DNA of 64,000 nucleotides, taken from assembly GCA_007132995.1 (NCBI GenBank), contig SLNP01000023.1:618-64617 (forward strand), in the 5' to 3' direction. Positions 7,963-19,246 of the stretch are shown here, one piece after another; position 1 is the first letter of the stretch, and the number at the start of each line of letters is the position of its first letter. The notes beneath the pieces were generated by a model. That model did not search any database, was not told the origin of the DNA, and saw nothing but the letters and a program-made list of their open reading frames with translations. A program made the position numbers and the translations under genes. This stretch comes from Bacteroidales bacterium. Its GTDB lineage: Bacteria > Bacteroidota > Bacteroidia > Bacteroidales > VadinHA17.

Positions 7963-9039
7963 ATGAAACGACTGTACAGAAAAGCAAAAAGGGCACTGCT
8001 CGTAGCGGTTGCTGTGATATCTCTATTGCCACAGGGCCTTAACGGGCAGATAGATGGCGAATTTTTCAGGGGTGGTATCAATGATGGAGTAAAAATAATA
8101 GAGGCATACATGGCGCCGTGGGCCAGGGCGTTTGGAGCCGGCCTTAATTCCGGCTGGTACAATACCGCCAAGCCTCACAGTTTTGGCGGATTTGATATTA
8201 CTCTTACCGTTAGTGCAGGTCTGGTTCCTGAGAGTCACCAGAGCTATGATCTTGCAGAGCTGGATTTTCAAAACATCTCGCTGGAGAATCCGATGGCGCC
8301 TACCATTGCCCCGACTATCTCCGGATCGACCAATATGGGGCCCGCTATGGAGAGTATCGATCCGAATAGTGGTTTACAGCTTGCAAATTTTTATGCCCCT
8401 GCCGGCACAGGATTAAATTTTGTTCCGGTTCCCATGATCCAGGGTGGGTTGGGGCTTCCGCTTGGAACTGAGATAAAGGGAAGGTTTATACCCAAAATAG
8501 CGATGGATGATAGCTATATATCGATGTGGGGTTTTGGTCTTAAGCATAGCATTGCACAGTATATACCGGGATATGAGTTTCTTCCCTATGACATCTCCCT
8601 GTTTGGTGCATACTCCAAAATAGAGGGCAAGGTCCCTTTCGACGCCAAACCAGGGTCGTATGATAACTACACTGTCTACACAGCCGACAGTTTTAGCGAT
8701 CAGCACATGCTGGGGGTAATAGACGGCTGGAATGCCAGCGTAATTGGTTCACTTAACCTGCCGGTGGTGACACTGTACGGTGCTCTTGGTTATGCCGGAA
8801 GCAGTACGGTTCTTGACATTGTCGGTAACATCCCTATTCCTTCGGTATCGGGGTCGACTGTGGTCTATGTAGATGATGAAGTAGTTACAGATATCGATAA
8901 GGTGGAGATTCAGGATTTCTCGGGTCTGCGAGCCAATGTGGGAGTTAGGCTCAAGTTTGCAATATTCACCATCCATGCAGACTATACACGCTCGCAATAC
9001 AATGTTATTTCAGGAGGCTTTGGTATCAGCTTCAGGTAG
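7963..9039 (+). CDS. Hypothetical outer-membrane beta-barrel protein
   Basis: Signal peptide (LLVAVAVISLLPQGLNGQ). Amphipathic beta-strand pattern. C-terminal ...GGFGISFR typical of outer-membrane barrels. No catalytic motif recognised. Confidence 0.5.
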   Translation: MKRLYRKAKRALLVAVAVISLLPQGLNGQIDGEFFRGGINDGVKIIEAYMAPWARAFGAGLNSGWYNTAKPHSFGGFDITLTVSAGLVPESHQSYDLAELDFQNISLENPMAPTIAPTISGSTNMGPAMESIDPNSGLQLANFYAPAGTGLNFVPVPMIQGGLGLPLGTEIKGRFIPKIAMDDSYISMWGFGLKHSIAQYIPGYEFLPYDISLFGAYSKIEGKVPFDAKPGSYDNYTVYTADSFSDQHMLGVIDGWNASVIGSLNLPVVTLYGALGYAGSSTVLDIVGNIPIPSVSGSTVVYVDDEVVTDIDKVEIQDFSGLRANVGVRLKFAIFTIHADYTRSQYNVISGGFGISFR

Positions 9040-9071
9040 CCGGAGTGTAGTCTGGCCGTTGCAGTTATGGG

Positions 9072-10712
9072 TCAGAAGCCACTAAGCTCCATGGTAACAG
9101 TTGGTATAAGAAGTAGTGCCCCCAGCAGGGCCAGCAGAAGAACAAGCGGCCCCACCCACTTAACCCATTTCTGAAATGGAATGCGGGCCACGCCCAAAAC
9201 TCCAATCAATACACCCGATGTAGGTGTTATTATGTTTGTGAATCCATCACCAAACTGAAAAGCCATTACCGTAGCCTGTCGTGAAACTCCGATAAGGTCG
9301 CTGAAGGGTGCCATTATTGGCATTGTCAGAGCAGCCTTGGCCGACCCCGATGGTATAACCACATTTATAGCAGTCTGTATCAGGTACATGATCTGTACAG
9401 ATGCGATATCACCTACATCGCTCATTGCCGAAGAGGCTCCGTGCAGAATGGTTGCGACTATCTGACCATCTTCCAGTATCACTATGATTCCACCTGCCAG
9501 CCCTACAACGAGGGCGGCAGGCAGGATATCTGCCGATCCCTCTATAAAGAGTCTGGTAATTCTGTTTGGCGAGTAGCCCATTGCCAGTCCGGCCATTATA
9601 CCCATGGCAAAGAAGAGGGTTGCAATCTCCATGATATACCATCCGTAACCCATAACACCAATTATCAGAATCACTATTGTGTAGAGAAGTATATTGAGCA
9701 CAAACATCTGGGCAGATCTCTTCATAGAGATTAATCCGGTAACAAGAAAGAGTAGTGAGATGATTGGCAGCATTGGTAGTGTCACTGATGAACCGGAGCC
9801 GGAGACAGGATCTCCAAACTGTAATGTTGAGACAGGATTAAGGATAGAGAAGAGCACCAGCGAGGCAAGTATCAGGGCAAATGCGGTTACCGAACCCTTT
9901 CCTGACAGGCTTGTTACGGAGCTGCCACTATCGGCCGATCGACCCCTCCAGTATTCATCTTCAACATAGACAGGCGAGAGTGAGGGGTTTTTTCTTATTC
10001 TGGATGCATAGCGAAGAATATAGGATATTCCGACAATATTGATAATGATCCAACAGAAGAACCTGTATTCAAGTCCGCTAAAGAGCGGAATTCCGGCAAT
10101 TCCCTGGGCAATTCCGATGGTAAAGGGGTTTAGCATTGCCCCGGCGAAGCCGAGAGCTGCAGCAACAAAGCAGAGCGCCACTCCGGTTATTGAGTCGTAG
10201 CCCATTGAAATGGCCAGGGGTACCAAAATAATAATGAATGCGATTGTCTCCTCGCTCATACCGAATACGGCCCCGAATACACTGAATAGCAGCATAATGA
10301 GTGTGAGAATAATATTCTGTACACCAATAAACCGCATAATCCTTATCTTTTCGAGGGTTCTGGAGAAGCCCAGGAAAGAGAGAATGCCATTATCAATTGC
10401 CTTACTGCTGTTGAGTATCCAGAACGCACCCCCAATCATAAGGATAAATACGATAATACCCGACTGCCTTACGAATCCGTTGAAGATTGCGGAGAATACC
10501 TGCCAGGTCTGCGGATTGCTCTCGGTCCGCCTGTAGACCGGAACAATGCTCTTTTCGACATCCTCCTGTATAACTTCAGTCAAACCCTTATAACTATCTA
10601 TATCTTCGGGCGTTATGTATTCACCTCCTGGAATAAACCATGTCAGTATGGCTGAGATTATAATTATGCCGAAGATAATTACATAGGTGTGGGGAAATCT
10701 CTCTCTTTTCAT
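9072..10712 (-). CDS. YfcC/DcuC-superfamily anaerobic carrier-type permease
   Basis: Polytopic membrane protein. N-terminus MKRERFPHTYVIIFGIIIISAILTWFIPGGEY and overall layout resemble YfcC-family transporters. ATG at 10712 is preferred over the ORF-track start, which is 37 codons longer. Confidence 0.6.
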   Translation of the reverse strand: MKRERFPHTYVIIFGIIIISAILTWFIPGGEYITPEDIDSYKGLTEVIQEDVEKSIVPVYRRTESNPQTWQVFSAIFNGFVRQSGIIVFILMIGGAFWILNSSKAIDNGILSFLGFSRTLEKIRIMRFIGVQNIILTLIMLLFSVFGAVFGMSEETIAFIIILVPLAISMGYDSITGVALCFVAAALGFAGAMLNPFTIGIAQGIAGIPLFSGLEYRFFCWIIINIVGISYILRYASRIRKNPSLSPVYVEDEYWRGRSADSGSSVTSLSGKGSVTAFALILASLVLFSILNPVSTLQFGDPVSGSGSSVTLPMLPIISLLFLVTGLISMKRSAQMFVLNILLYTIVILIIGVMGYGWYIMEIATLFFAMGIMAGLAMGYSPNRITRLFIEGSADILPAALVVGLAGGIIVILEDGQIVATILHGASSAMSDVGDIASVQIMYLIQTAINVVIPSGSAKAALTMPIMAPFSDLIGVSRQATVMAFQFGDGFTNIITPTSGVLIGVLGVARIPFQKWVKWVGPLVLLLALLGALLLIPTVTMELSGF

Positions 10713-10785
10713 ATACCGGCAGGGTTTAAATATCAGTTTATAAAAATAGGAAAAGCGTTTGATAATTATCTCTATTTTTGAGTTG

Positions 10786-12999
10786 ATGAAGAGAGAAGAT
10801 TCTACCGATACCAGAAGTGCCATAAACAGGAGCTACAGATCTCTTCTCCGTGCCTCGGCCCGATTTCTTTCCAGGGGTGACAGCAGGGAGATCAGAAGGG
10901 CATTGAATATGGCTATTGATGCCTGTGCAGGTGGTGTAACAGTTACAGGCACCAACTGCATACTTCATTCGCTCTCTGTGGCCAGGATAGTGGCAGCCGA
11001 CATGGGCCTTGGCAGAACCTCAGTGATATCAGCGATACTGCACTATGGGGTTGAGAACAACCGGATACCCATATCTGCCATAGAGACGGAGTTTGGTCAG
11101 GGTGTTTCAAGAATTCTAAGTGGCTTCAGCAGGGTAAGTGCTGTTGAGACAATAGATTCGGTTAATCAGGCAGCCACTTTCAGGAAACTTATACTATCTC
11201 TTGCAGACGATGTGAGGGTGGTGGTTATCAAGTTGGCAGAGAGGCTTGTATATATGCGGGATCTTGAGGGGGCAGACGAGGAGAACAGGTTGCGTCTTGC
11301 ATCAGAAACCTATTTTGTATACGCCCCCCTTGCCTACAGGCTGGGCTTCTACCTGATGAAGTCAGAGATGGAAGATCTCTCGATGAGGTACCTTGAACCG
11401 GAGCAGTATAGCTATATTGTTGAGAAGCTGAGACAGACAACCTCATCCAGAAATCGGCTTATAAGAGAGTTTATAGCCCCTCTGCGCGAGAAACTGGATG
11501 CAGCAGGGTTGAGCTACTCGGTAAAGGGCAGAACGAAGTCCGTGCACTCCATATGGCAGAAAATGAAGAAACAGGGGGTGGAATTTGAAGAGGTTTATGA
11601 TCTCTTTGCCATTCGTATTATAGTTGATACCCTTCCGGAGAGGGAGAAGTATGACTGCTGGCAGGTCTACTCTCTGGTTACCGATCTGTATCAGCCCAAT
11701 CCAAGCCGTCTTCGTGACTGGATATCTGTTCCGAAATCTAATGGATATGAGTCGCTTCATACTACAGTGGTTGGTCCCCGGGGAAAATGGGTCGAGGTTC
11801 AGATAAGGACTGAGAGAATGGATGAACTTGCAGAGAGGGGGGTTGCAGCCCATTTCCGTTATAAAGGACTTAAGGGAGAAAAGAGGGGGCTTGAGGTGTG
11901 GCTTTCCCGCATGAGGGAGCTGCTGGAAAAGCCGGACAGGGAGGAGGAGGCGTTTGTAGATCAGGTTAAGTCAGGGCTCTATTCGGACGAGGTGTTTGTT
12001 TTTACCCCCAGGGGTGATATCAAGCAGCTTCCTGCCGGCTCTACGGTTCTCGACTTTGCATATGAGATTCATACAGAGGTGGGTAGTGGCTGTGTGGGCG
12101 CCAGGGTGAATGGCAAGAATGTTACCATAAAGCAGATACTGAAAAACGGAGACCATGTCTCTGTTATAAGATCAAAAAACCAGAAACCCAAAAGTGACTG
12201 GCTCTCTTTTGTGAAGACCGGTAAGGCCCGGGCTGCTATCAAGAGTGCACTTAACGAAGCGAAGATGGCTGAGGCTGTTGAAGGCAAGGAGATGCTTATG
12301 AGACGGCTGAAAAACTGGAAAATAGGCTACTCTGACAAGGTTGTAATGCGCCTGCTTGGGCACTATGGGTTAAAAAAGGCACAGGATCTATACTGTAAGA
12401 TAGCCTCTTCAGACATAGAGATGCTCGATATAAAGGAGTTCTTAAAAACTGAGCCATCTCATGATGCATCTGTGGCAGGAGAGGAGACGGCAGAGATACA
12501 GATTCAGGAGACAGAGAGCGGGAAGAGGGCCACTCAGGGTGATTACCTTGTGATAGAGAATAAGATAGAGGGGGTCGATTACAGACTGTCCGGTTGCTGC
12601 AACCCGGTTTACGGTGACAAGGTATTTGGGTTTGTAACCATATCAGAAGGTATCAAGATACACAGAACAGTCTGTCCCAATGCAGAAAATATGATTACAA
12701 GGTATCCTTACAGGGTTGTGCCTGCCCGGTGGACACAGTCCGGCAGCGCACCTTCATTCAGCGCCACACTTAAGTTTACATCTGTTGAGGATATGGCTGT
12801 TATTTCGAAAATATCCTCGGTTCTTGCCGATACTTTAGTTAATGTAAGGGGTATAAGCCATAGTGCCGGTGACGGACTCTATGAGGGGACTATATATTTT
12901 ACCGTACCCAATGTTGATATACTGCAGGAGTTGATACGCAAGATATCTGCTGTCAGGGGGGTTTTAAGGGTTGTAAGGGCAGGGGACAGTAGTGGCTAG
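10786..12999 (+). CDS. relA: RelA/SpoT-homolog (p)ppGpp synthetase with degenerate hydrolase (HD) domain
   Basis: Synthetase core RTKSVHSIWQKM...YDLFAIRIIV...SNGYESLHTTV...EVQIRTERMDELAERGVAAHFRYK. TGS domain (VFVFTPRGDIKQLPAGSTVLDFAY). C-terminal ACT-like domain. The HD motifs are replaced (HS, HYGVENN, ERLVYM). Confidence 0.88.
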   Translation: MKREDSTDTRSAINRSYRSLLRASARFLSRGDSREIRRALNMAIDACAGGVTVTGTNCILHSLSVARIVAADMGLGRTSVISAILHYGVENNRIPISAIETEFGQGVSRILSGFSRVSAVETIDSVNQAATFRKLILSLADDVRVVVIKLAERLVYMRDLEGADEENRLRLASETYFVYAPLAYRLGFYLMKSEMEDLSMRYLEPEQYSYIVEKLRQTTSSRNRLIREFIAPLREKLDAAGLSYSVKGRTKSVHSIWQKMKKQGVEFEEVYDLFAIRIIVDTLPEREKYDCWQVYSLVTDLYQPNPSRLRDWISVPKSNGYESLHTTVVGPRGKWVEVQIRTERMDELAERGVAAHFRYKGLKGEKRGLEVWLSRMRELLEKPDREEEAFVDQVKSGLYSDEVFVFTPRGDIKQLPAGSTVLDFAYEIHTEVGSGCVGARVNGKNVTIKQILKNGDHVSVIRSKNQKPKSDWLSFVKTGKARAAIKSALNEAKMAEAVEGKEMLMRRLKNWKIGYSDKVVMRLLGHYGLKKAQDLYCKIASSDIEMLDIKEFLKTEPSHDASVAGEETAEIQIQETESGKRATQGDYLVIENKIEGVDYRLSGCCNPVYGDKVFGFVTISEGIKIHRTVCPNAENMITRYPYRVVPARWTQSGSAPSFSATLKFTSVEDMAVISKISSVLADTLVNVRGISHSAGDGLYEGTIYFTVPNVDILQELIRKISAVRGVLRVVRAGDSSG

Positions 13000-15944
13000 C
13001 TAACTGCAGGTCGCTTTTTGAGAGGCAGCCTTACAGCTTTTTCCACTACCATTGAAAGGTGCCCGAACTCTCTTCTTGTTGTGCCGGATAGGCTATATAC
13101 ACCTCCGGCACCGACAGGATATTTTTTTAGTGAGGAAGAGAAATGGAGGGTGTCGAAATAGCCTCCGCTGCTATTTATAAAACACCCGAAGCAGAGCGGC
13201 TCTCCCCGTACATTTCTTATCCTTTTCACTGATATCAGAAGGCCTGTTGCGGTTACCCTGTTGTTGTTATGCCCTGCCGGTACGGTGCCATACCAATCTT
13301 CGTGGTCAGTACGCTCAGTAAGGTCAAACCAGCTGGCCGACACAGGAAACCCCAGTAGCTCTATCTCATCATAGGCATCTTCAATTCTGCTTCCCCTGAG
13401 CGTAGGGATAGCATCGTGCACACCTGCATCTTCCCTGAATAGCATGGGTGAGAGGCCTCCGGTCCGCCTCCCTTTTTTTATGACTCTTGCCGCTATATGA
13501 GCCTCCCACAGCAGATTTGCCTTGCTCTTACCCGTGAAGCGGAATGCTCCCGATCGTATAAGGATTATAGCCTGATCAAGCCCGGCGTCGCATCTCTCCA
13601 TAAAATCTGTAAGATTGCCGAACCAGCCACCTCTCTCTCTCTCTCTCTCTATTTCAGAGACCATTTTTTTCTCTATGCCTGATATATGAATAAACCCAAT
13701 GTATATATCGCTCTTGTTCAGGAGCACTGTATTGAGACAACTTTTGTTTATGCATGGCAGATGGATAGTGCCCCCCTGGCGCCTGGCTTCGTGGAAGTAG
13801 ACCCACGCAGGGTAGAAACCTCCGGAGTTGTTTATAACAGCAACCATGAACTCAAGGGGGTAGTGCGATTTGAGGTAAAGCCCCTGAAGGCTTTCTACTG
13901 CATATGATGCCGAATGCGCTTTTGAGAACGAGTATCCCGCAAACGACTCTATCTGTCTCCACACCTCTTTTGCAAGGCGGTTACTGTATCCTCTCTCCCT
14001 GCAGCCGGAGAAGAATCTCTCTGATATTCCTGCTATCTCCTCTTTAGAGTGTTTTTTACCGCTCATAGCCCTTCTGAGAGTGTCTCCGTCTGCCATGCCG
14101 AGTCCTGCAAAATAGTGACATACCCTTAACACATCTTCCTGGTAAACCATTATACCGAAGGTGTCTTTAAGCTGCTCTTTTATTACCGGATGTGGATATG
14201 AGACCTTGTCAGGGTTGTTGTGTCGTCTTATATATTCACGCATCATACCGGACCGCGAAACACCGGGACGGATTATTGAGCTTGCCGCTACAAGGGTGTG
14301 GTAGTCTGAGCATTTCAGTTTTGAGAGCAGTGACCTCATGGCGGGACTCTCAATGTAGAAGCAGCCTATTGTCTCTCCTCTGCTTAGCCGCTCCATCACC
14401 AGGCTGTTTTCCCTTATCATGGTGTCACTCTCTATGGCGGGTCTCACTCCATATCTTTCCCCAATAGATGACAGGGCGTCATTTATGTCTGCTATACCCC
14501 TCTGGCTTAATACATCAAGCTTATCGTAACCAAGCTTTTCAGCGGTATACATATCCCATTGTGTAACTCCAAATCCACCGGATGAGACATCCAGGGCCGT
14601 GTAGTATGTAAGCGGCCTTTCAGAGATAACTACTCCCCCGGCATGAATGCTTCTTATGTTTGGGAAAGCATCTATTTTCGAGCTTGCCAGTAGTATTTCA
14701 CGGGTTATGCTGCATGGAGATTCCGACTCACGGGCAAGAGCTGTCACCTCCTGCCCGGGAAGCCCGTGTGTCCTGCTCAACTCCCTTATTGCAGAGCCGG
14801 CTCTAAACCGGTTTATGGTGCCAAGAAGGGCGGTTTTATCATCACCATATTTGCTGAACAGATATTTTATGACCTCCTCTCTATCTCTCCACGAGTAATC
14901 GATGTCAAAGTCAGGAGGCGAACTTCTGGAGGGGTTGATAAATCTTTCGAAGTAAAGGTTGAGGTTTATAGGGTCAACATTAGTGATTCCCAGACAGTAG
15001 GCAACTATGGAGTTTGCGCCGCTACCCCTTCCGACATGGTGGAACCCTTTCGAAGTGGAGAATCTTATCATATCCCATGTTATCAGGAAGTATGATGAGA
15101 ATCCCAGCTTGTCTATTATTTGAAGCTCTGACCTTACCCTTGAAGCGGCCCTTTCGTCTTTTCCGTAGCGATGTAAAAGTCCTTCCCATGCCAGCTTCTC
15201 CAGAAGTAGCCTGTCTTCGTATTTTCCACCTGAGTAGCTCTCCCTGTTTTTGGGTTTACCGGCTTCAAGGTCTGCAGTGCAGTCGTCAATCAGACGCCGT
15301 GTGTTATCTGCTATTTCAGGGAAGTCTGAAAAGCGTCTGGCCAGCTCTCTCTCTGGTATAAAGATATGACTCTTTCCGGCACATGACTCGATGGAAATCC
15401 TGTCGGACAGGCAGTTGTTGTCTATTGCCCTCAGTTGTTTATGAACAGGAAGATCGTTTGGTTCTGCCAGGGTTACGGTATGTAATATTACCATTCGTCT
15501 GTAAATATTGTCTGACTTAAGGCGGTGTATCTTCCATGTTTCATGGCAGCTTACCCCTATGAACTCATTGTCAAAAAGTCTCCGTTCCGGTATGCGGTCC
15601 ATGCGATATATGATGTAGCATTCTGAAAGAGGGGGGGCAGGGAAGGGGAGTGGAACATTTCCCCTGTTGTGTCTGGTAAGCAGTTCGTTTAACTCCCTGA
15701 AACCCTCACTGTTTCGTGCTATTCCAATATAGAGGGGCGCGTTGTTGTTGCGAAAATCTACTCCGGCAACCGGCCTGATGCCCGCTCTTCTGCATTCAGA
15801 AATAAAATCGGCTGTCGCTGTCGTGTTGTTTATATCTGTAAGAGCCAACGATGCGGCTCCGGACTCTCTGGCCATGGCAACAAGTCTCTCTACGGATATT
15901 GTTCCGTATCGCAGGCTGTAGTATGAGTGACAGTTAAGGAACAT
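12996..15944 (-). CDS. dnaE2: Error-prone DNA polymerase III alpha-like, DnaE2/ImuC type
   Basis: N-terminal degenerate PHP MFLNCHSYYSLRYG (a single His instead of HxH, as in DnaE2). Polymerase catalytic PDFDIDY. GRGSGANSIV, FSKAHSASYA. 982 aa, 5-nt gap after the upstream Y-family polymerase gene. Confidence 0.85.
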   Translation of the reverse strand: MFLNCHSYYSLRYGTISVERLVAMARESGAASLALTDINNTTATADFISECRRAGIRPVAGVDFRNNNAPLYIGIARNSEGFRELNELLTRHNRGNVPLPFPAPPLSECYIIYRMDRIPERRLFDNEFIGVSCHETWKIHRLKSDNIYRRMVILHTVTLAEPNDLPVHKQLRAIDNNCLSDRISIESCAGKSHIFIPERELARRFSDFPEIADNTRRLIDDCTADLEAGKPKNRESYSGGKYEDRLLLEKLAWEGLLHRYGKDERAASRVRSELQIIDKLGFSSYFLITWDMIRFSTSKGFHHVGRGSGANSIVAYCLGITNVDPINLNLYFERFINPSRSSPPDFDIDYSWRDREEVIKYLFSKYGDDKTALLGTINRFRAGSAIRELSRTHGLPGQEVTALARESESPCSITREILLASSKIDAFPNIRSIHAGGVVISERPLTYYTALDVSSGGFGVTQWDMYTAEKLGYDKLDVLSQRGIADINDALSSIGERYGVRPAIESDTMIRENSLVMERLSRGETIGCFYIESPAMRSLLSKLKCSDYHTLVAASSIIRPGVSRSGMMREYIRRHNNPDKVSYPHPVIKEQLKDTFGIMVYQEDVLRVCHYFAGLGMADGDTLRRAMSGKKHSKEEIAGISERFFSGCRERGYSNRLAKEVWRQIESFAGYSFSKAHSASYAVESLQGLYLKSHYPLEFMVAVINNSGGFYPAWVYFHEARRQGGTIHLPCINKSCLNTVLLNKSDIYIGFIHISGIEKKMVSEIERERERGGWFGNLTDFMERCDAGLDQAIILIRSGAFRFTGKSKANLLWEAHIAARVIKKGRRTGGLSPMLFREDAGVHDAIPTLRGSRIEDAYDEIELLGFPVSASWFDLTERTDHEDWYGTVPAGHNNNRVTATGLLISVKRIRNVRGEPLCFGCFINSSGGYFDTLHFSSSLKKYPVGAGGVYSLSGTTRREFGHLSMVVEKAVRLPLKKRPAVS
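13631..13650. repeat. (CT)10 dinucleotide microsatellite inside dnaE2
   Basis: Perfect ctctctctctctctctctct. On the coding strand (AG)10 encodes EIERERERGG. Confidence 0.95.
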
Positions 15945-15949
15945 CTCTC

Positions 15950-17182
15950 TTATCTGGACGCAGGGTGCTCTCCTTTTCTACAGCTTAATGTATCTGCCCT
16001 GCCGATTATCTCTTCCCCGAATCGTTTTTTGATATTGTCGATAGAGAGGTAGAGCCTCTCCATTCCGGTCTCGTTGTTGAAAAGATCGGGTTGCAACGGT
16101 TCCCGGCTTAGACCGCTGAGTTTTACACCGGCAAGCCGTATCAGCACCCTTCGCTTGTATAGCTTGTTAAAGAGCTCTTTTACAACTGTTAGTATCTTGT
16201 GATCTAAAGCAGTAGGTTTGATTTTCTTCTGTATGGTGTGGGTCTCGTAGTCTGAATACCTTATCTTTACTGTTATACAGGATGTATTTCTGCCCTCTGC
16301 TCTTAGCTGATGGGATAGTCTCTCTGTCATATCTGACAGAAGGGCGGTAATTGCGGTAATGTCAGAGCTGTCTCTCTGCAGGGTCCTTTCGCTGCTGACA
16401 GATTTTTTCGATGAGCAGCCGGTAACGGGAGAGTCATCAATCCCGTTTGCCCTTCTCCATATCTCTATGCCGTTTTTGCCAATAAGTCCTGTCAGAACCG
16501 AAGGCGGAATCTGCCTAAGGGTTGCTATTATTGAGACCCCCATCGATGAGAGGATTCTGCCGGTCTTGCTGCCTACCATCGGTATTCTGGTAACCGCAAG
16601 CGGATCGAGGAAGGGTGTTACCATCTTATTGTCGATACTTCTTATACCGTCCGGCTTTGCCTCTCCTGCTGCGATTTTTGAGACAGTTTTGTTTATTGAA
16701 AGCCCTGCAGAGAGGGGTAGCCCCGTTTCAGATGATATATAACGCCTCAGCTCTTCAGACCATTTTCTGCAGCCATAGAACCTCTCCATGCCGGTCAGGT
16801 CTATATAGTACTCATCTATCGATCTCTTTTCATATACCGGTGCTCTTTCAGCAATAATATCGGTAACAACAGATGAGTACCTGTTATACAGGTCTATATC
16901 ACCTCTTATTAATGTGGCCTCGGGGCATAGCCGGAGAGCCATTTTAACAGGCATTGCCGAGTGAACTCCGTACATCCTGGCCTCATAGCTGCAGCTGGAT
17001 ACCACCCCCCGGTCAGATGTACCGCCTATTATTACCGGCTTGCCCTTAAGGCGGCTGTCAGCAACTCTTTCGACAGAGACAAAAAAGGTGTCCATATCAA
17101 GGTGTAGCACGGCCCTTTTATCACCCTTGTGCGGCAGCGGATAATATTTGTTGTAGCTGTTTTTGAGTTCAGAGTTTGACAT
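15950..17182 (-). CDS. dinB: Y-family DNA polymerase (DinB/Pol IV-like) in the ImuB position
   Basis: LHLDMDTFFVSVE (catalytic Asp plus FF steric gate). SIDEYYIDLT (catalytic Asp-Glu). SAGLSINKTVSKIAAGEAKPDG. C-terminal QPDLF clamp-binding-like motif. Confidence 0.85.
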   Translation of the reverse strand: MSNSELKNSYNKYYPLPHKGDKRAVLHLDMDTFFVSVERVADSRLKGKPVIIGGTSDRGVVSSCSYEARMYGVHSAMPVKMALRLCPEATLIRGDIDLYNRYSSVVTDIIAERAPVYEKRSIDEYYIDLTGMERFYGCRKWSEELRRYISSETGLPLSAGLSINKTVSKIAAGEAKPDGIRSIDNKMVTPFLDPLAVTRIPMVGSKTGRILSSMGVSIIATLRQIPPSVLTGLIGKNGIEIWRRANGIDDSPVTGCSSKKSVSSERTLQRDSSDITAITALLSDMTERLSHQLRAEGRNTSCITVKIRYSDYETHTIQKKIKPTALDHKILTVVKELFNKLYKRRVLIRLAGVKLSGLSREPLQPDLFNNETGMERLYLSIDNIKKRFGEEIIGRADTLSCRKGEHPASR

Positions 17183-17202
17183 ATACTCTTTTAATACTAT
17201 CT

Positions 17203-17221
17203 TTGACTAGAAATTAATCAA
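17203..17221. promoter_or_regulatory. Imperfect palindrome TTGACTAG-AAA-TTAATCAA in the divergent promoter region (candidate repressor operator)
   Basis: Half-sites TTGAYTA match at 6 of 8 positions. A third half-site (TTGATTA on the minus strand) lies at 17238-17244. The whole 69-bp region separates dinB-dnaE2 from the XRE-S24 gene. Confidence 0.25.
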
Positions 17222-17251
17222 TCTTGCGACAGCAATATAATCAAAAACGAG

Positions 17252-18079
17252 ATGTATCTTTCATGTAACATTAAATTTTTACGAAAGCGAAGGGGGCGTA
17301 CACAGGATGATGTGGCAGTGGCTCTGAAGCTCAAGAGGTCAACCCTGAGCGGCTATGAGAATGGTATAGCCGAGCCTTCTCTGGAGACGCTGATAGCTCT
17401 CTCATCCTATTTCACCGTATCTGTCGATACCTTGTTGAGGGTCGATATGGCAACACTCTCTGAGAGCCAGTTGGGAGAGATTGAGAGGGGATATGATGCC
17501 TATGTAAGGGGAGGCAAACTCAGGGTTCTTGCCACTACTGTAAACAGCGATAACAATGAGAATATTGAGCTGGTTCCGGAGGCCGCAAAAGCCGGATATT
17601 CAACCGGATACGCAGATCCTGAGTTTATCGCAGCGCTTCCCGTATTCCGCCTTCCGTTCCTGTCCGATAACAGGAAGTATCGTACCTTTCAGCTAAAGGG
17701 TGACTCTATGCTGCCAATACCCGATGGTGCATGGGTTACCGGTGAGTTTCTTCAGGACTGGAACCATATAGTTGACGGAAGGGCATACATAATATTTACA
17801 CTCAATGAAGGTATTGTGTTTAAGATGGCAGAGAACAGAATAGCCTCTGACGGCAAGCTTATTCTCTACTCTCTGAACCCTGTATATGAGCCCTATGAGG
17901 TCCATGTATCTGAAATTAAAGAGGTTTGGCAGTTCGTAAACTATATAAGCTCTGAACTGCCCGACCCGGTTGTTCCGGAGAGGCATATATATAGTACAGT
18001 TGCCGGACTAAAGCGTGATATTCAGCGTATAAAAAGAAGATTGGGGGCCGATATAGAAGATATATCTCCCGAGAGGTAG
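17252..18079 (+). CDS. LexA/CI-like repressor: XRE-type HTH fused to S24 autopeptidase
   Basis: HTH LRKRRGRTQDDVAVALKLKRSTLSGYENGIAEPSLETLIALSSYF. S24 Ser motif LKGDSMLP and Lys in IVFKMAE. Possible Ala-Gly cleavage site KAGYS. Confidence 0.85.
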   Translation: MYLSCNIKFLRKRRGRTQDDVAVALKLKRSTLSGYENGIAEPSLETLIALSSYFTVSVDTLLRVDMATLSESQLGEIERGYDAYVRGGKLRVLATTVNSDNNENIELVPEAAKAGYSTGYADPEFIAALPVFRLPFLSDNRKYRTFQLKGDSMLPIPDGAWVTGEFLQDWNHIVDGRAYIIFTLNEGIVFKMAENRIASDGKLILYSLNPVYEPYEVHVSEIKEVWQFVNYISSELPDPVVPERHIYSTVAGLKRDIQRIKRRLGADIEDISPER

Positions 18080-18104: not shown

Positions 18105-18644
18105 CTATCTGGCAATATGGAAGAGCCCCTTATTATACGCCAGAGGTATAACCTCTCCCGACTCCACCCTGTCGGAAGATATGTCGTATCTGTTTTCGGT
18201 CAGGGGAAGGGTAAGCCTCTTTTCCCCGCCCGAAACATTGTTAAGACGGCTTACTACAATTAGTGCGCCCGGTATCACACTTGTGGCAAGGGAAGGCGAC
18301 TCACAAACAACGGGTGATTTTCCCGGAATGAGCGACATAACCTTTTTAAAGGGAGCGAGGGGCCCTCCACTCACTACCTGTATATAGAACGATTTTATGG
18401 CGCCTGCGGCAAGAAGTCTTGATGAATCCTTTTCACGCCTGGCTGAGAGCTCTTCGCTTACAACAAAATCCTCTTCACGGAATAGCACCTCTAAGCCATC
18501 CTGTAGCGGATGGTTGTGAGAGCTTATCTTAACGCTATAAACACCGTGGTTGCTGAATCTTCTTATTATATCAGCGGCGACTGTAGTTTTACCGACCTTG
18601 CGTCCTGTGCCGGCAACTATGACAACTTGTGGCATGTGTGTCAT
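18105..18644 (-). CDS. P-loop NTPase, MobB-like
   Basis: Walker A AGTGRKVGKTT. KISSHNHPL and DSSRLLAAGA resemble the MobB motifs IKHxHH and DSxRxxxAGA. No other molybdenum-cofactor genes nearby. Confidence 0.4.
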   Translation of the reverse strand: MTHMPQVVIVAGTGRKVGKTTVAADIIRRFSNHGVYSVKISSHNHPLQDGLEVLFREEDFVVSEELSARREKDSSRLLAAGAIKSFYIQVVSGGPLAPFKKVMSLIPGKSPVVCESPSLATSVIPGALIVVSRLNNVSGGEKRLTLPLTENRYDISSDRVESGEVIPLAYNKGLFHIAR

Positions 18645-18664
18645 GCTATAAATCTGATTATGTG

Positions 18665-19246
18665 CTACTTACGCAGCAAGTAAGGATAGGAGGGGCGGGG
18701 AGGAGCGCCCTCGGTAAGCTCTATTATCAGTTTTACAATATTGTCCCACTCACTTCTGGGTATTTCACCTCTGAATATTGCACGACACACCCGCTCTCTG
18801 TCAACTATTATTGTTGTGTAGCTGTTTTTGGGCATTCCCCAGATATCTTGCAGCAGCCCCTCATAGTCAAACAGTATTGTTGCATCATATCTTCTCGCTT
18901 TGCGTCGGGCAACAATCCGTATGGCACTGTTTGGCATCCAGGTAGACCTTGAATCTACTATGCCAAAGCCGTCAAACTTATCGGGATCTATGCGTCTATC
19001 TCTCTCTACAACATTTTTAATAAAGTCATTAAAGTCATCGTTCAGGTCTGACTGCCCCGGATCTACATAGTTTATAATTAACACCTTGTTTTCCCATGAT
19101 TCAAGGGTGAACATCTTATTGCCGGCGTCCGGCAGTCTCCAGTCAGGAACCCTTTGCCCGACCTTAATGCCTCTCTCTTGCGCGGTGAGCAAAAGGGGTA
19201 TTGCCATAACAATACCAAGCAGAATTGGTTTTATCGAAGCTTTCAT
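18665..19246 (-). CDS. Secreted YtfJ-like / thioredoxin-fold protein without CxxC
   Basis: Signal peptide. GQRVPDW near the N-terminus and overall pattern recall the E. coli YtfJ family. No redox cysteine pair. Confidence 0.4.
   Translation of the reverse strand: MKASIKPILLGIVMAIPLLLTAQERGIKVGQRVPDWRLPDAGNKMFTLESWENKVLIINYVDPGQSDLNDDFNDFIKNVVERDRRIDPDKFDGFGIVDSRSTWMPNSAIRIVARRKARRYDATILFDYEGLLQDIWGMPKNSYTTIIVDRERVCRAIFRGEIPRSEWDNIVKLIIELTEGAPPRPSYPYLLRK

Follow-up and report, generated by a model that had tools for sequence, protein, structure and literature searches.

The present analysis concerns a stretch of 64,000 nucleotides from contig SLNP01000023.1 of a Bacteroidales bacterium (assembly GCA_007132995.1), referred to below as the window, and within it a locus at which the gene of a predicted repressor lies divergent from two genes for DNA polymerases of the Y and C families. 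In the open reading frame (ORF) listing, the three genes have the following positions:

12996-15944, minus strand: dnaE2B-type C-family polymerase gene, 982 aa
15950-17182, minus strand: dinB-type Y-family polymerase gene, 410 aa
17252-18079, plus strand: repressor gene, 275 aa

The repressor gene and dinB are separated by a divergent spacer of 69 bp (17183-17251), and dinB and dnaE2B by a gap of 5 nt (15945-15949). The three ORFs, the spacer and the gap are identical to the base with those given in an earlier reading of the same DNA, referred to here as the original prediction, in which the locus was regarded as an SOS-like mutagenesis module. In the public annotation, the repressor is called with 253 aa from an internal GTG (Val23; 17318 as opposed to 17252), which cuts into the helix-turn-helix (HTH) domain. 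The 275-aa ORF from 17252 agrees with all relatives in length and sequence.

For the comparative part of the analysis, 80 related loci were fetched from species-representative genomes, each with 7 kb on either side. Relatives of the repressor are encoded in at least 570 species-level genomes, nearly all of them uncultured metagenome-assembled genomes (MAGs) labelled Bacteroidales or Rikenellaceae. The database holds more than 5,600 relatives; the best 120 of these show 71-76% identity, and their named sources are mostly Bacteroidales MAG proteins called LexA-family or XRE-family regulators. dinB is divergent to the repressor gene wherever a related locus extends far enough upstream, which leaves 73 informative loci, and dnaE is the next gene after dinB in all adequately flanked loci except one (L012), which is apparently mis-assembled. 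Because the same gene order, relA> <dnaE <dinB / rep>, recurs in the related loci with enough flank, the arrangement of relA, dnaE, dinB and repressor is not due to chance. The adjacency of dinB and dnaE2, on which the original prediction had allowed that its reading could fail, is kept in the informative related loci.

In Pfam, the repressor carries an HTH_3 domain (PF01381) with 59 bits at residues 7-60. The LexA winged helix (PF01726) has no match in the 275-aa protein, which differs in this respect from canonical LexA (COG1974). Peptidase_S24 (PF00717) was matched by all 23 aligned homologs of the repressor, with a best E-value of 2.4e-8. S152 in the motif GDSM and K191 in the motif VFK are invariant among these 23 homologs, as is the Ala-Gly pair of the predicted autocleavage site:

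17591-17596, plus strand: codons of the predicted autocleavage site Ala114-Gly115, invariant in the 23 homologs and aligned to VQAGM of lambda CI and to the published AGY

With these residues and the Pfam matches, the fusion of an XRE-type HTH to an S24 peptidase domain, as proposed in the original prediction, is confirmed. Its description of the repressor as CI-like also holds, because the family profile aligned with lambda CI co-linearly and over the full length (E=9e-4), while the hhalign comparison with E. coli LexA gave only a spurious match of 18 columns (E=0.18). In the alignment with lambda CI, AKAGY is paired with VQAGM, GDSM with GNSM (S149), VFK with TFK (K192), and LNPVYEP with LNPQYPM. 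Searched against the PDB sequences, the repressor profile returned HTH matches only and no S24 chain. The AlphaFold2 (AF2) model reached a predicted local distance difference test score (pLDDT) above 90 for the helices at residues 3-63, so that only the HTH is modelled with confidence. Behind the S24 domain, the tail of the repressor is conserved at residues ~237-270 and aligns with the tails of published non-canonical LexA proteins, which end in such a helix as well (PMC8565304); the AF2 model, built from the 23-sequence alignment, predicts a tail helix at residues 243-264 with low confidence.

Non-canonical, CI-like LexA proteins of Bacteroidetes have been validated for DNA binding and mitomycin C induction by electrophoretic mobility shift assay and reverse transcription quantitative PCR (Sanchez-Osuna et al., 2021; PMC8565304), and the validated regulator sequences used here were taken from the supplementary alignment of that study. 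The C-terminal region of the window repressor is 45-47% identical (E ~1e-53) to the P. actiniarum-type regulators, which recognise CTAA-N5-TTAG, and 31-40% identical to the S. agarivorans-type regulators, which recognise GGA-N5-TCC. In the tree, the repressor family forms a sub-branch of its own and has the P. actiniarum cluster as its sister, their union being supported by a bootstrap value of 92%. Judged by its sequence, the 275-aa protein is a non-canonical, lambda-CI-like repressor of the LexA family with a predicted cleavage site, and its position in the tree places it within the non-canonical LexA family. Both ortholog groups were stated to be absent from the order Bacteroidales (PMC8565304); nonetheless, the supplement of the same study lists L2-type regulators in genera of the Marinilabiliales and in Dysgonomonas. 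Since the labels of MAGs often follow a broader taxonomy, the Bacteroidales-labelled clade extends the published picture and does not contradict it.

When the DNA upstream of the repressor ATG was aligned, a near-invariant -7 box TAnnTTTG followed by two copies of GATTA-N5-TAATC, named here O1 and O2, was found by inspection. The corresponding elements of the window are:

17175-17178, plus strand: candidate -33 element TTTG of the repressor promoter, inside codons 2-3 of dinB and 19 nt upstream of the -7 box
17198-17205, plus strand: -7 box TATCTTTG (TAnnTTTG) of the repressor promoter, at the same position in 73 of 73 loci, its last G being the first base of O1
17205-17219, unstranded: predicted operator O1, GACTA-GAAAT-TAATC, sequence GACTAGAAATTAATC, 21.7 bits with the position weight matrix (PWM); 19-mer TTGACTAGAAATTAATCAA at 17203-17221
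17228-17242, unstranded: remnant of predicted operator O2, GACAG-CAATA-TAATC, with register, spacer and right arm kept and the left arm degenerate

The arms of O1 match in 10 of 10 positions in 63 of the 73 loci and those of O2 in 57 of the 73. The distance between the two operators is 23 bp in 71/73 loci, and in 71/73 loci O2 starts 24-26 nt before the repressor ATG. The operator PWM found 147 matches at the operators as opposed to 7 elsewhere in 985 kb, and within the 64-kb window O1 is the sole match of at least 8 bits. In 69 of 72 spacers, the exact palindrome GATTA-N5-TAATC is present, 118 times in total, with 0.11 occurrences expected. The published motifs CTAA-N5-TTAG and GGA-N5-TCC, in comparison, occur 3 and 4 times in the 72 spacers against 0.7 and 1.3 expected, and are thus at chance level in the spacers of this clade; for this reason the repressor is assigned to neither of the two published motif groups of its family. 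As the arms GATTA and TAATC are unlike every motif described by Sanchez-Osuna et al. (PMC8565304), they represent a previously unreported variant of the predicted operator.

In 72 of the 73 loci, the -7 box is preceded by a TTG at a distance of 19-20 nt, and the resulting pattern TTG-N19/20-TAnnTTTG fits the sigma-A promoter consensus of Bacteroidota (PMC7366714). Since O1 overlaps the -7 box, a bound repressor would occlude this box together with the transcription start, and autoregulation of the repressor via the predicted operator is therefore well supported by the arrangement of these elements. In the relatives, O2 reads GATTA-CAATA-TAATC and is near-invariant. Its spacer CAATA (17233-17237 in the window) is essentially invariant in the clade, as opposed to the variable spacer of O1, and the same spacer is found in the CTAA box upstream of dinB on a plasmid of Adhaeribacter swui, CTAA-CAATA-TTAG (L084, 3791-3803). 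This suggests an additional constraint on CAATA, either as a promoter element of the divergent transcript or as a feature of the 5' untranslated region of the repressor mRNA.

The operator spacing of 23 bp, counted from start to start (twin operators at 17203-17244 in the window), equals that between OR3 and OR2 of lambda and is close to that between OR2 and OR1 (24 bp; annotation of NC_001416, L092, 952-1015), and by analogy it is suggestive of cooperative binding by two repressor dimers on the twin operators. The resemblance to lambda CI thus extends from the co-linear arrangement of HTH and S24 domain, including cleavage and catalytic residues, to divergent promoters and adjacent operators at a similar distance. 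However, the window repressor is chromosomal and has an additional C-terminal helix, its probable targets are polymerase genes instead of lysogeny functions, and the operators of its clade measure 15-19 bp with a 5-bp spacer. One relative has a further twin operator, with 19.7 and 23.5 bits, at L080 9376-9418 between the genes for a DUF2461 protein (8603-9268, minus strand) and a Zn_ribbon_2 protein (9433-9702, plus strand), a hint that in one species or more the regulon includes genes other than those of the polymerase locus.

Among the published regulators, the P. actiniarum cluster (WP_025606010.1) is the closest in layout. It has the XRE HTH, the Ala-Gly linker, the S24 domain with Ser and Lys and the terminal helix in common with the window family; in both, an arm-N5-arm palindrome lies in the promoter of the regulator gene itself, and both are associated with genes for error-prone polymerases. 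It differs in its arms (CTAA/TTAG instead of GATTA/TAATC), and the window family forms its own sub-branch in Bacteroidales-labelled MAGs. The regulator of Elizabethkingia anophelis (WP_078407279.1; TTAC-N5-GTAA) is likewise a member of the family with a divergent motif; it lies divergent from an error-prone polymerase gene with an arm-N5-arm palindrome in the shared promoter region, and both the regulator and this gene are induced by mitomycin C (PMC8565304, Fig. 8). Its arm sequence is different, and it has a single site in place of the conserved twin operator of the window clade.

The 410-aa protein contains the Pfam domains IMS and IMS_C. The classification with profile hidden Markov models that the original prediction had proposed as a check gave 282 bits for the NCBIfam Pol IV model PRK02406, above its cutoff of 256, and just 75 bits for UmuC. 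The catalytic acids D29/D31 (LDMD) and D123-E124 (SIDE), the steric gate F33-F34 and the motif QPDLF, all of which had been pointed out from the single sequence, are conserved in 67 orthologs. With 49-51% identity to the Bacteroid-PolY2 proteins of Draconibacterium, Chitinophaga and Sphingobacterium, the protein is apparently an active polymerase of the DinB or Bacteroid-PolY2 type and not an ImuB. Two segments near its C-terminus are of importance for possible interactions:

16076-16090, minus strand: beta-clamp-binding motif QPDLF, DinB residues 365-369, from the alignment of 67 orthologs; family consensus QQLDMF
15995-16060, minus strand: RecA-N-terminus-like helix, DinB residues 375-396, MERLYLSIDNIKKRFGEEIIGR, from hhalign; predicted RecA docking site

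The clamp motif can be compared with the consensus QxxLF given in a survey from 2026 (PMC12926913). In hhalign, the profile of the DinB tail aligned with residues 8-29 of E. coli RecA (E=0.01) and with residues 16-35 of Draconibacterium RecA (E=0.002, 40% identity), in both cases as a short motif, and the segment is covered by the BLAST alignment of DinB to the Bacteroid-PolY2 proteins. The DinB tail may therefore correspond, if only weakly, to the RecA N-terminus-like (RecA-NT) motif that defines the putative PolY-DnaE2B-RecA mutasomes. The window DinB ends 14 residues past this helix and has no ImuB-C domain. In the relatives, the RecA-NT-like helix is followed by another ~25-30 aa that form a conserved C-terminal tail (EREEKALKQLENALKEQNMMEERLKGY; 3' ends of L003-L082). 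The window DinB is without this tail, and only 5 nt remain between the end of its gene and the dnaE ATG (15945-15995), as opposed to a dinB-dnaE gap of ~80-600 nt in the relatives; the surveyed Bacteroid-PolY2 proteins carry other tails. The clade-specific tail may be a partner-binding segment that was lost by the lineage of the window.

In the 982-aa protein, Pfam recognises the domains PHP, DNA_pol3_alpha, finger and HHH_6. The polymerase triad D345/D347/D477 aligns with D401/D403/D555 of E. coli and is invariant in 57 orthologs, and the metal-ligand positions of the PHP domain are occupied by N4, Y13 and I38, which are also invariant in the 57 orthologs. By its residues, the protein thus has an inactive PHP domain and an intact polymerase triad, in agreement with the degenerate PHP domain and the catalytic PDFDIDY of the original prediction. 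The class of the protein was assigned by comparison with the named DnaE2B sequences of the 2026 survey and with the architecture of Bacteroidetes DnaE1. This comparison replaced a neighbour-joining tree of DnaE homologs whose DnaE1 references are exclusively gammaproteobacterial and whose root is unplaced, and which does not decide between DnaE1 and DnaE2; in this tree, the protein falls into a clade of 100% bootstrap support with the dinB-linked dnaE of an Adhaeribacter plasmid. The N-terminal 400 aa show 44-47% identity and 337-380 bits to the Bacteroidetes DnaE2B proteins of the survey, as opposed to 142-154 bits to E. coli DnaE1, a plasmid DnaE1 and two imuAB-linked DnaE2 proteins, with 142-148 bits for the imuAB-linked DnaE2 (DnaE2A) alone. 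On this basis, the sequence belongs to the DnaE2B group and not to the DnaE2A proteins associated with ImuA and ImuB ('ImuC'); of the label DnaE2/ImuC in the original prediction, the first part can be retained and the second must be dropped. The same dinB-dnaE pair, with 47% identity, is present on the plasmid of the cultured A. swui, where it is located after the gene for an SOS-response-associated peptidase and has a CTAA-N5-TTAG box 38 nt upstream of dinB.

The remaining components of known mutasomes were searched for by tblastn with genuine ImuA (Rhizobium ImuA was used), ImuB, RecA, LexA and DnaE1 as queries. Neither ImuA, RecA, canonical LexA nor a second DnaE had a match in the window (64 kb) or in the 80 loci with their 7-kb flanks, in accordance with the lack of an imuA-like ORF noted previously. 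An ImuB was not detectable in the same regions, and ImuB queries miss the Y-family protein of the window. As in the canonical imuA-imuB-dnaE2 cassette, an SOS-linked Y-family protein is combined here with a second Pol III alpha subunit that is devoid of proofreading. However, the window locus has no ImuA, its Y-family partner is catalytically intact and free of ImuB-C, and its C-family partner is a DnaE2B and not a DnaE2A. The closer counterpart is the PolY-DnaE2B-RecA system of Bacteroidetes, in which two active polymerases occur without ImuA or ImuB (Timinskas and Venclovas, 2019; PMC6511836). DnaE2B-PolY-RecA was named and modelled in the 2026 survey, including Draconibacterium of the Marinilabiliales (PMC12926913), which took in complete genomes only and left the MAG clade unsampled. 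Both have an active Bacteroid-PolY2 with clamp motif and RecA-NT helix next to a DnaE2B with inactive PHP domain, and both are without ImuA, ImuB and ImuB-C, at identities of 44-51%. The PolY of the window clade differs in that it usually has the additional conserved C-terminal tail, which the window DinB has lost.

The dinB start codon of the window is just 22 nt away from O1. A promoter for dinB therefore has to share sequence with the operators or be placed on their far side, and it is mainly from this geometry that we infer control of dinB-dnaE2B by the same repressor. Compact spacers of 62-111 bp are found in about 11 loci including the window, and co-repression appears most probable in these. 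It is less secure in the long-spacer relatives, because long variable DNA without a second operator separates the operators from dinB; nor does an independent dinB-proximal promoter or operator recur in them. A precedent is given by the dinB genes that are found in an operon with COG0587 Pol III alpha under the control of non-canonical LexA (PMC8565304).

The family memberships, the catalytic residues, the conserved synteny and the architecture of operators and promoter are features of the locus itself. Its function is what we infer, namely that the repressor binds DNA and is cleaved, that the locus is induced by damage, that dinB-dnaE2B is co-repressed and that the products form a complex, in the following way. 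A repressor dimer would bind GATTA-N5-TAATC, and in most relatives two dimers would occupy the twin operators 23 bp apart. Occupancy of O1 would block RNA polymerase at the promoter of the repressor itself, resulting in autoregulation, and the bound repressor would also silence the dinB-dnaE2B operon. After DNA damage, filaments of RecA on single-stranded DNA would stimulate self-cleavage at Ala114-Gly115 by means of the Ser152/Lys191 dyad, which would derepress both transcription units. The active Y-family polymerase and the proofreading-deficient DnaE2B would then act together with RecA as a PolY-DnaE2B-RecA mutasome that requires neither ImuA nor ImuB. We consider it highly probable that the locus is a chromosomal, vertically inherited SOS-type module for translesion synthesis of the kind already described in Bacteroidota.

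Several observations weigh against this interpretation. On the side of the proteins, Peptidase_S24 scores 21.1 bits (E=2.5e-4) in the window repressor itself, with a gathering score of 23.3 bits, the AF2 model of the repressor is poor in the C-terminal half (mean pLDDT 52.7), and the 34-residue profile of the DinB tail found no RecA among the PDB sequences but chance-level matches, the best of them RecX with E=0.19. On the side of the DNA, O2 of the window is degenerate (-1.1 bits with the PWM as opposed to a training minimum of 15), and in the window by itself the O1 pattern falls short of significance (1 match, 0.46 expected), which is why the weight of O1 rests on the comparative data. A dinB promoter was located neither in the window nor in the spacers of the relatives. 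On the dinB strand, a single -7-like element recurs; it is situated in the stretch that separates O1 from O2 and has a perfect form in 14/73 loci and a partial form (TAnnnTTG) in 39/73. In most relatives, the operators are kept apart from dinB by 100-800 bp of variable repeats, the PWM found no additional operator near dinB in the long-spacer relatives, and in about 12 relatives a 23S_rRNA_IVP gene (PF05635, a four-helix-bundle protein) is inserted between the operators and dinB, for example at L081 6504-6863 and L070 6317-6700, both on the minus strand. These findings on the dinB side, namely the missing operator, the high variability of the DNA with its repeats and inserted genes, and the weak -7 candidate, also favour the most serious rival explanation, according to which only the repressor is autoregulated, while dinB-dnaE2B has a promoter of its own and owes its divergent position next to the repressor gene to inherited synteny alone. 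This adjacency, however, is kept in all 73 informative loci, and in the roughly 11 compact loci a dinB promoter would be unable to avoid the operators. Furthermore, the Elizabethkingia case has the same divergent layout with both genes damage-induced, and error-prone polymerases form the conserved core of SOS regulons (PMC8565304), so that regulation confined to the repressor is in our view rather unlikely.

Two further explanations concern the identity of the proteins. The 982-aa protein could be a replicative Pol III alpha subunit and the Y-family gene an ordinary dinB, in which case the locus would not encode a mutasome. This is in keeping with the NCBIfam models, where the DnaE1 model PRK05673 scores 534 bits and the error-prone model PRK05672 463 bits, although neither reaches its cutoff, with the identity of 28% to E. 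coli DnaE1 as opposed to 23-25% to canonical DnaE2, and with the neighbour-joining tree, subject to the limits of its references and root. However, DnaE1 of Bacteroidetes has a length of ~1,480 aa and an N-terminal DnaQ-like domain that is absent from the 982-aa protein, the bit scores point to the DnaE2B proteins of the survey, and the surveyed genomes with DnaE2B, e.g., Alkalitalea, Draconibacterium and Adhaeribacter radiodurans, each also have one DnaE1 (PMC12926913). Together with the plasmid location of a close homolog, the inactive PHP domain and the lack of a proofreader nearby, this makes a housekeeping role very improbable. Least probable of all, and scarcely to be expected, is that the 275-aa protein is the CI repressor of a prophage or mobile element, or an XRE-type antitoxin, unrelated to the damage response of the host. 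Its HTH is indeed most similar to repressors of phages and integrative and conjugative elements and to antitoxins of the HipB and PezA types, and the non-canonical LexA family is thought to be derived from phage repressors (PMC8565304). Nevertheless, no relative of the repressor family was found among 2.9 million viral contigs, the window locus has housekeeping neighbours including relA, gyrA and clpB and no phage, mobile-element, integrase or toxin genes nearby, the chromosomal synteny is conserved over 80 species-level genomes, and the protein has homologs among regulators with demonstrated control of SOS genes.

With the SOS-type module as the preferred interpretation, the question arises as to what the locus adds to existing knowledge. 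The original prediction implied that both the polymerase pair and its control were novel, which cannot be maintained: the two-polymerase system lacking ImuA was published in 2019 (PMC6511836) and again in 2026 (PMC12926913), and the control of dinB-Pol III alpha operons by CI-like LexA proteins was published, and partly validated, in 2021 (PMC8565304). The system itself is therefore already known in Bacteroidota and constitutes neither a new mechanism nor a new class. New is the predicted operator of the clade, a twin GATTA-N5-TAATC at 23 bp, the first copy of which shares a base with the -7 box in the promoter of the repressor. The finding extends the published SOS system of Bacteroidota to at least 570 species-level genomes that were left unsampled by surveys of complete genomes, and supplies for this clade a precise predicted operator (TTGATTA-N5-TAATCAA, twice) along with the promoter architecture. 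It is a further case of LexA-type repressors that change their motif yet keep the control of error-prone polymerases, and with the operator known, the regulon in the MAGs of the clade is straightforward to compute. A more far-reaching proposal, which we regard as speculative and more doubtful than not, is that this large uncultured clade labelled Bacteroidales possesses a third operator specificity of non-canonical LexA and an SOS response that has shrunk to a 'mutagenesis-only' switch of repressor and PolY-DnaE2B. Overall, the value of the finding is incremental and the find itself an ordinary one.

The DNA between the operators and dinB varies in a characteristic manner among the relatives. 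Spacers with the 23S_rRNA_IVP gene or with repeats occur in L010, L020, L023, L029, L034, L040, L047, L063, L064, L072, L078 and L082. The gene is accompanied by tandem repeats of 8-12 nt of the CTCTAGGCA / CTCTAGTCA type, and other relatives have GC-rich hairpins or repeats of the GTCATTGCGAG type in the same place. L012 contains an inverted partial copy of the twin operator (899-940) together with frameshifted dinB fragments (1238-1952). This second operator was rejected, as it was judged to result from partial duplication with inversion or from faulty assembly, and is probably an artefact of a long-read MAG.

On the far side of the polymerase genes, relA/spoT (10759-12999, plus strand) converges with dnaE2B (12996-15944, minus strand) with a 4-nt overlap of the stop codons at 12996-12999, and its position beside dnaE2B is kept in nearly all relatives. 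Two small ORFs of 179 aa and 193 aa without a Pfam family are located 3' of the repressor gene on the minus strand (18105-19246 in the window). Most relatives have the 193-aa ORF in the same position with 42-59% identity, and about two thirds of them have the 179-aa ORF there with 28-42% identity.

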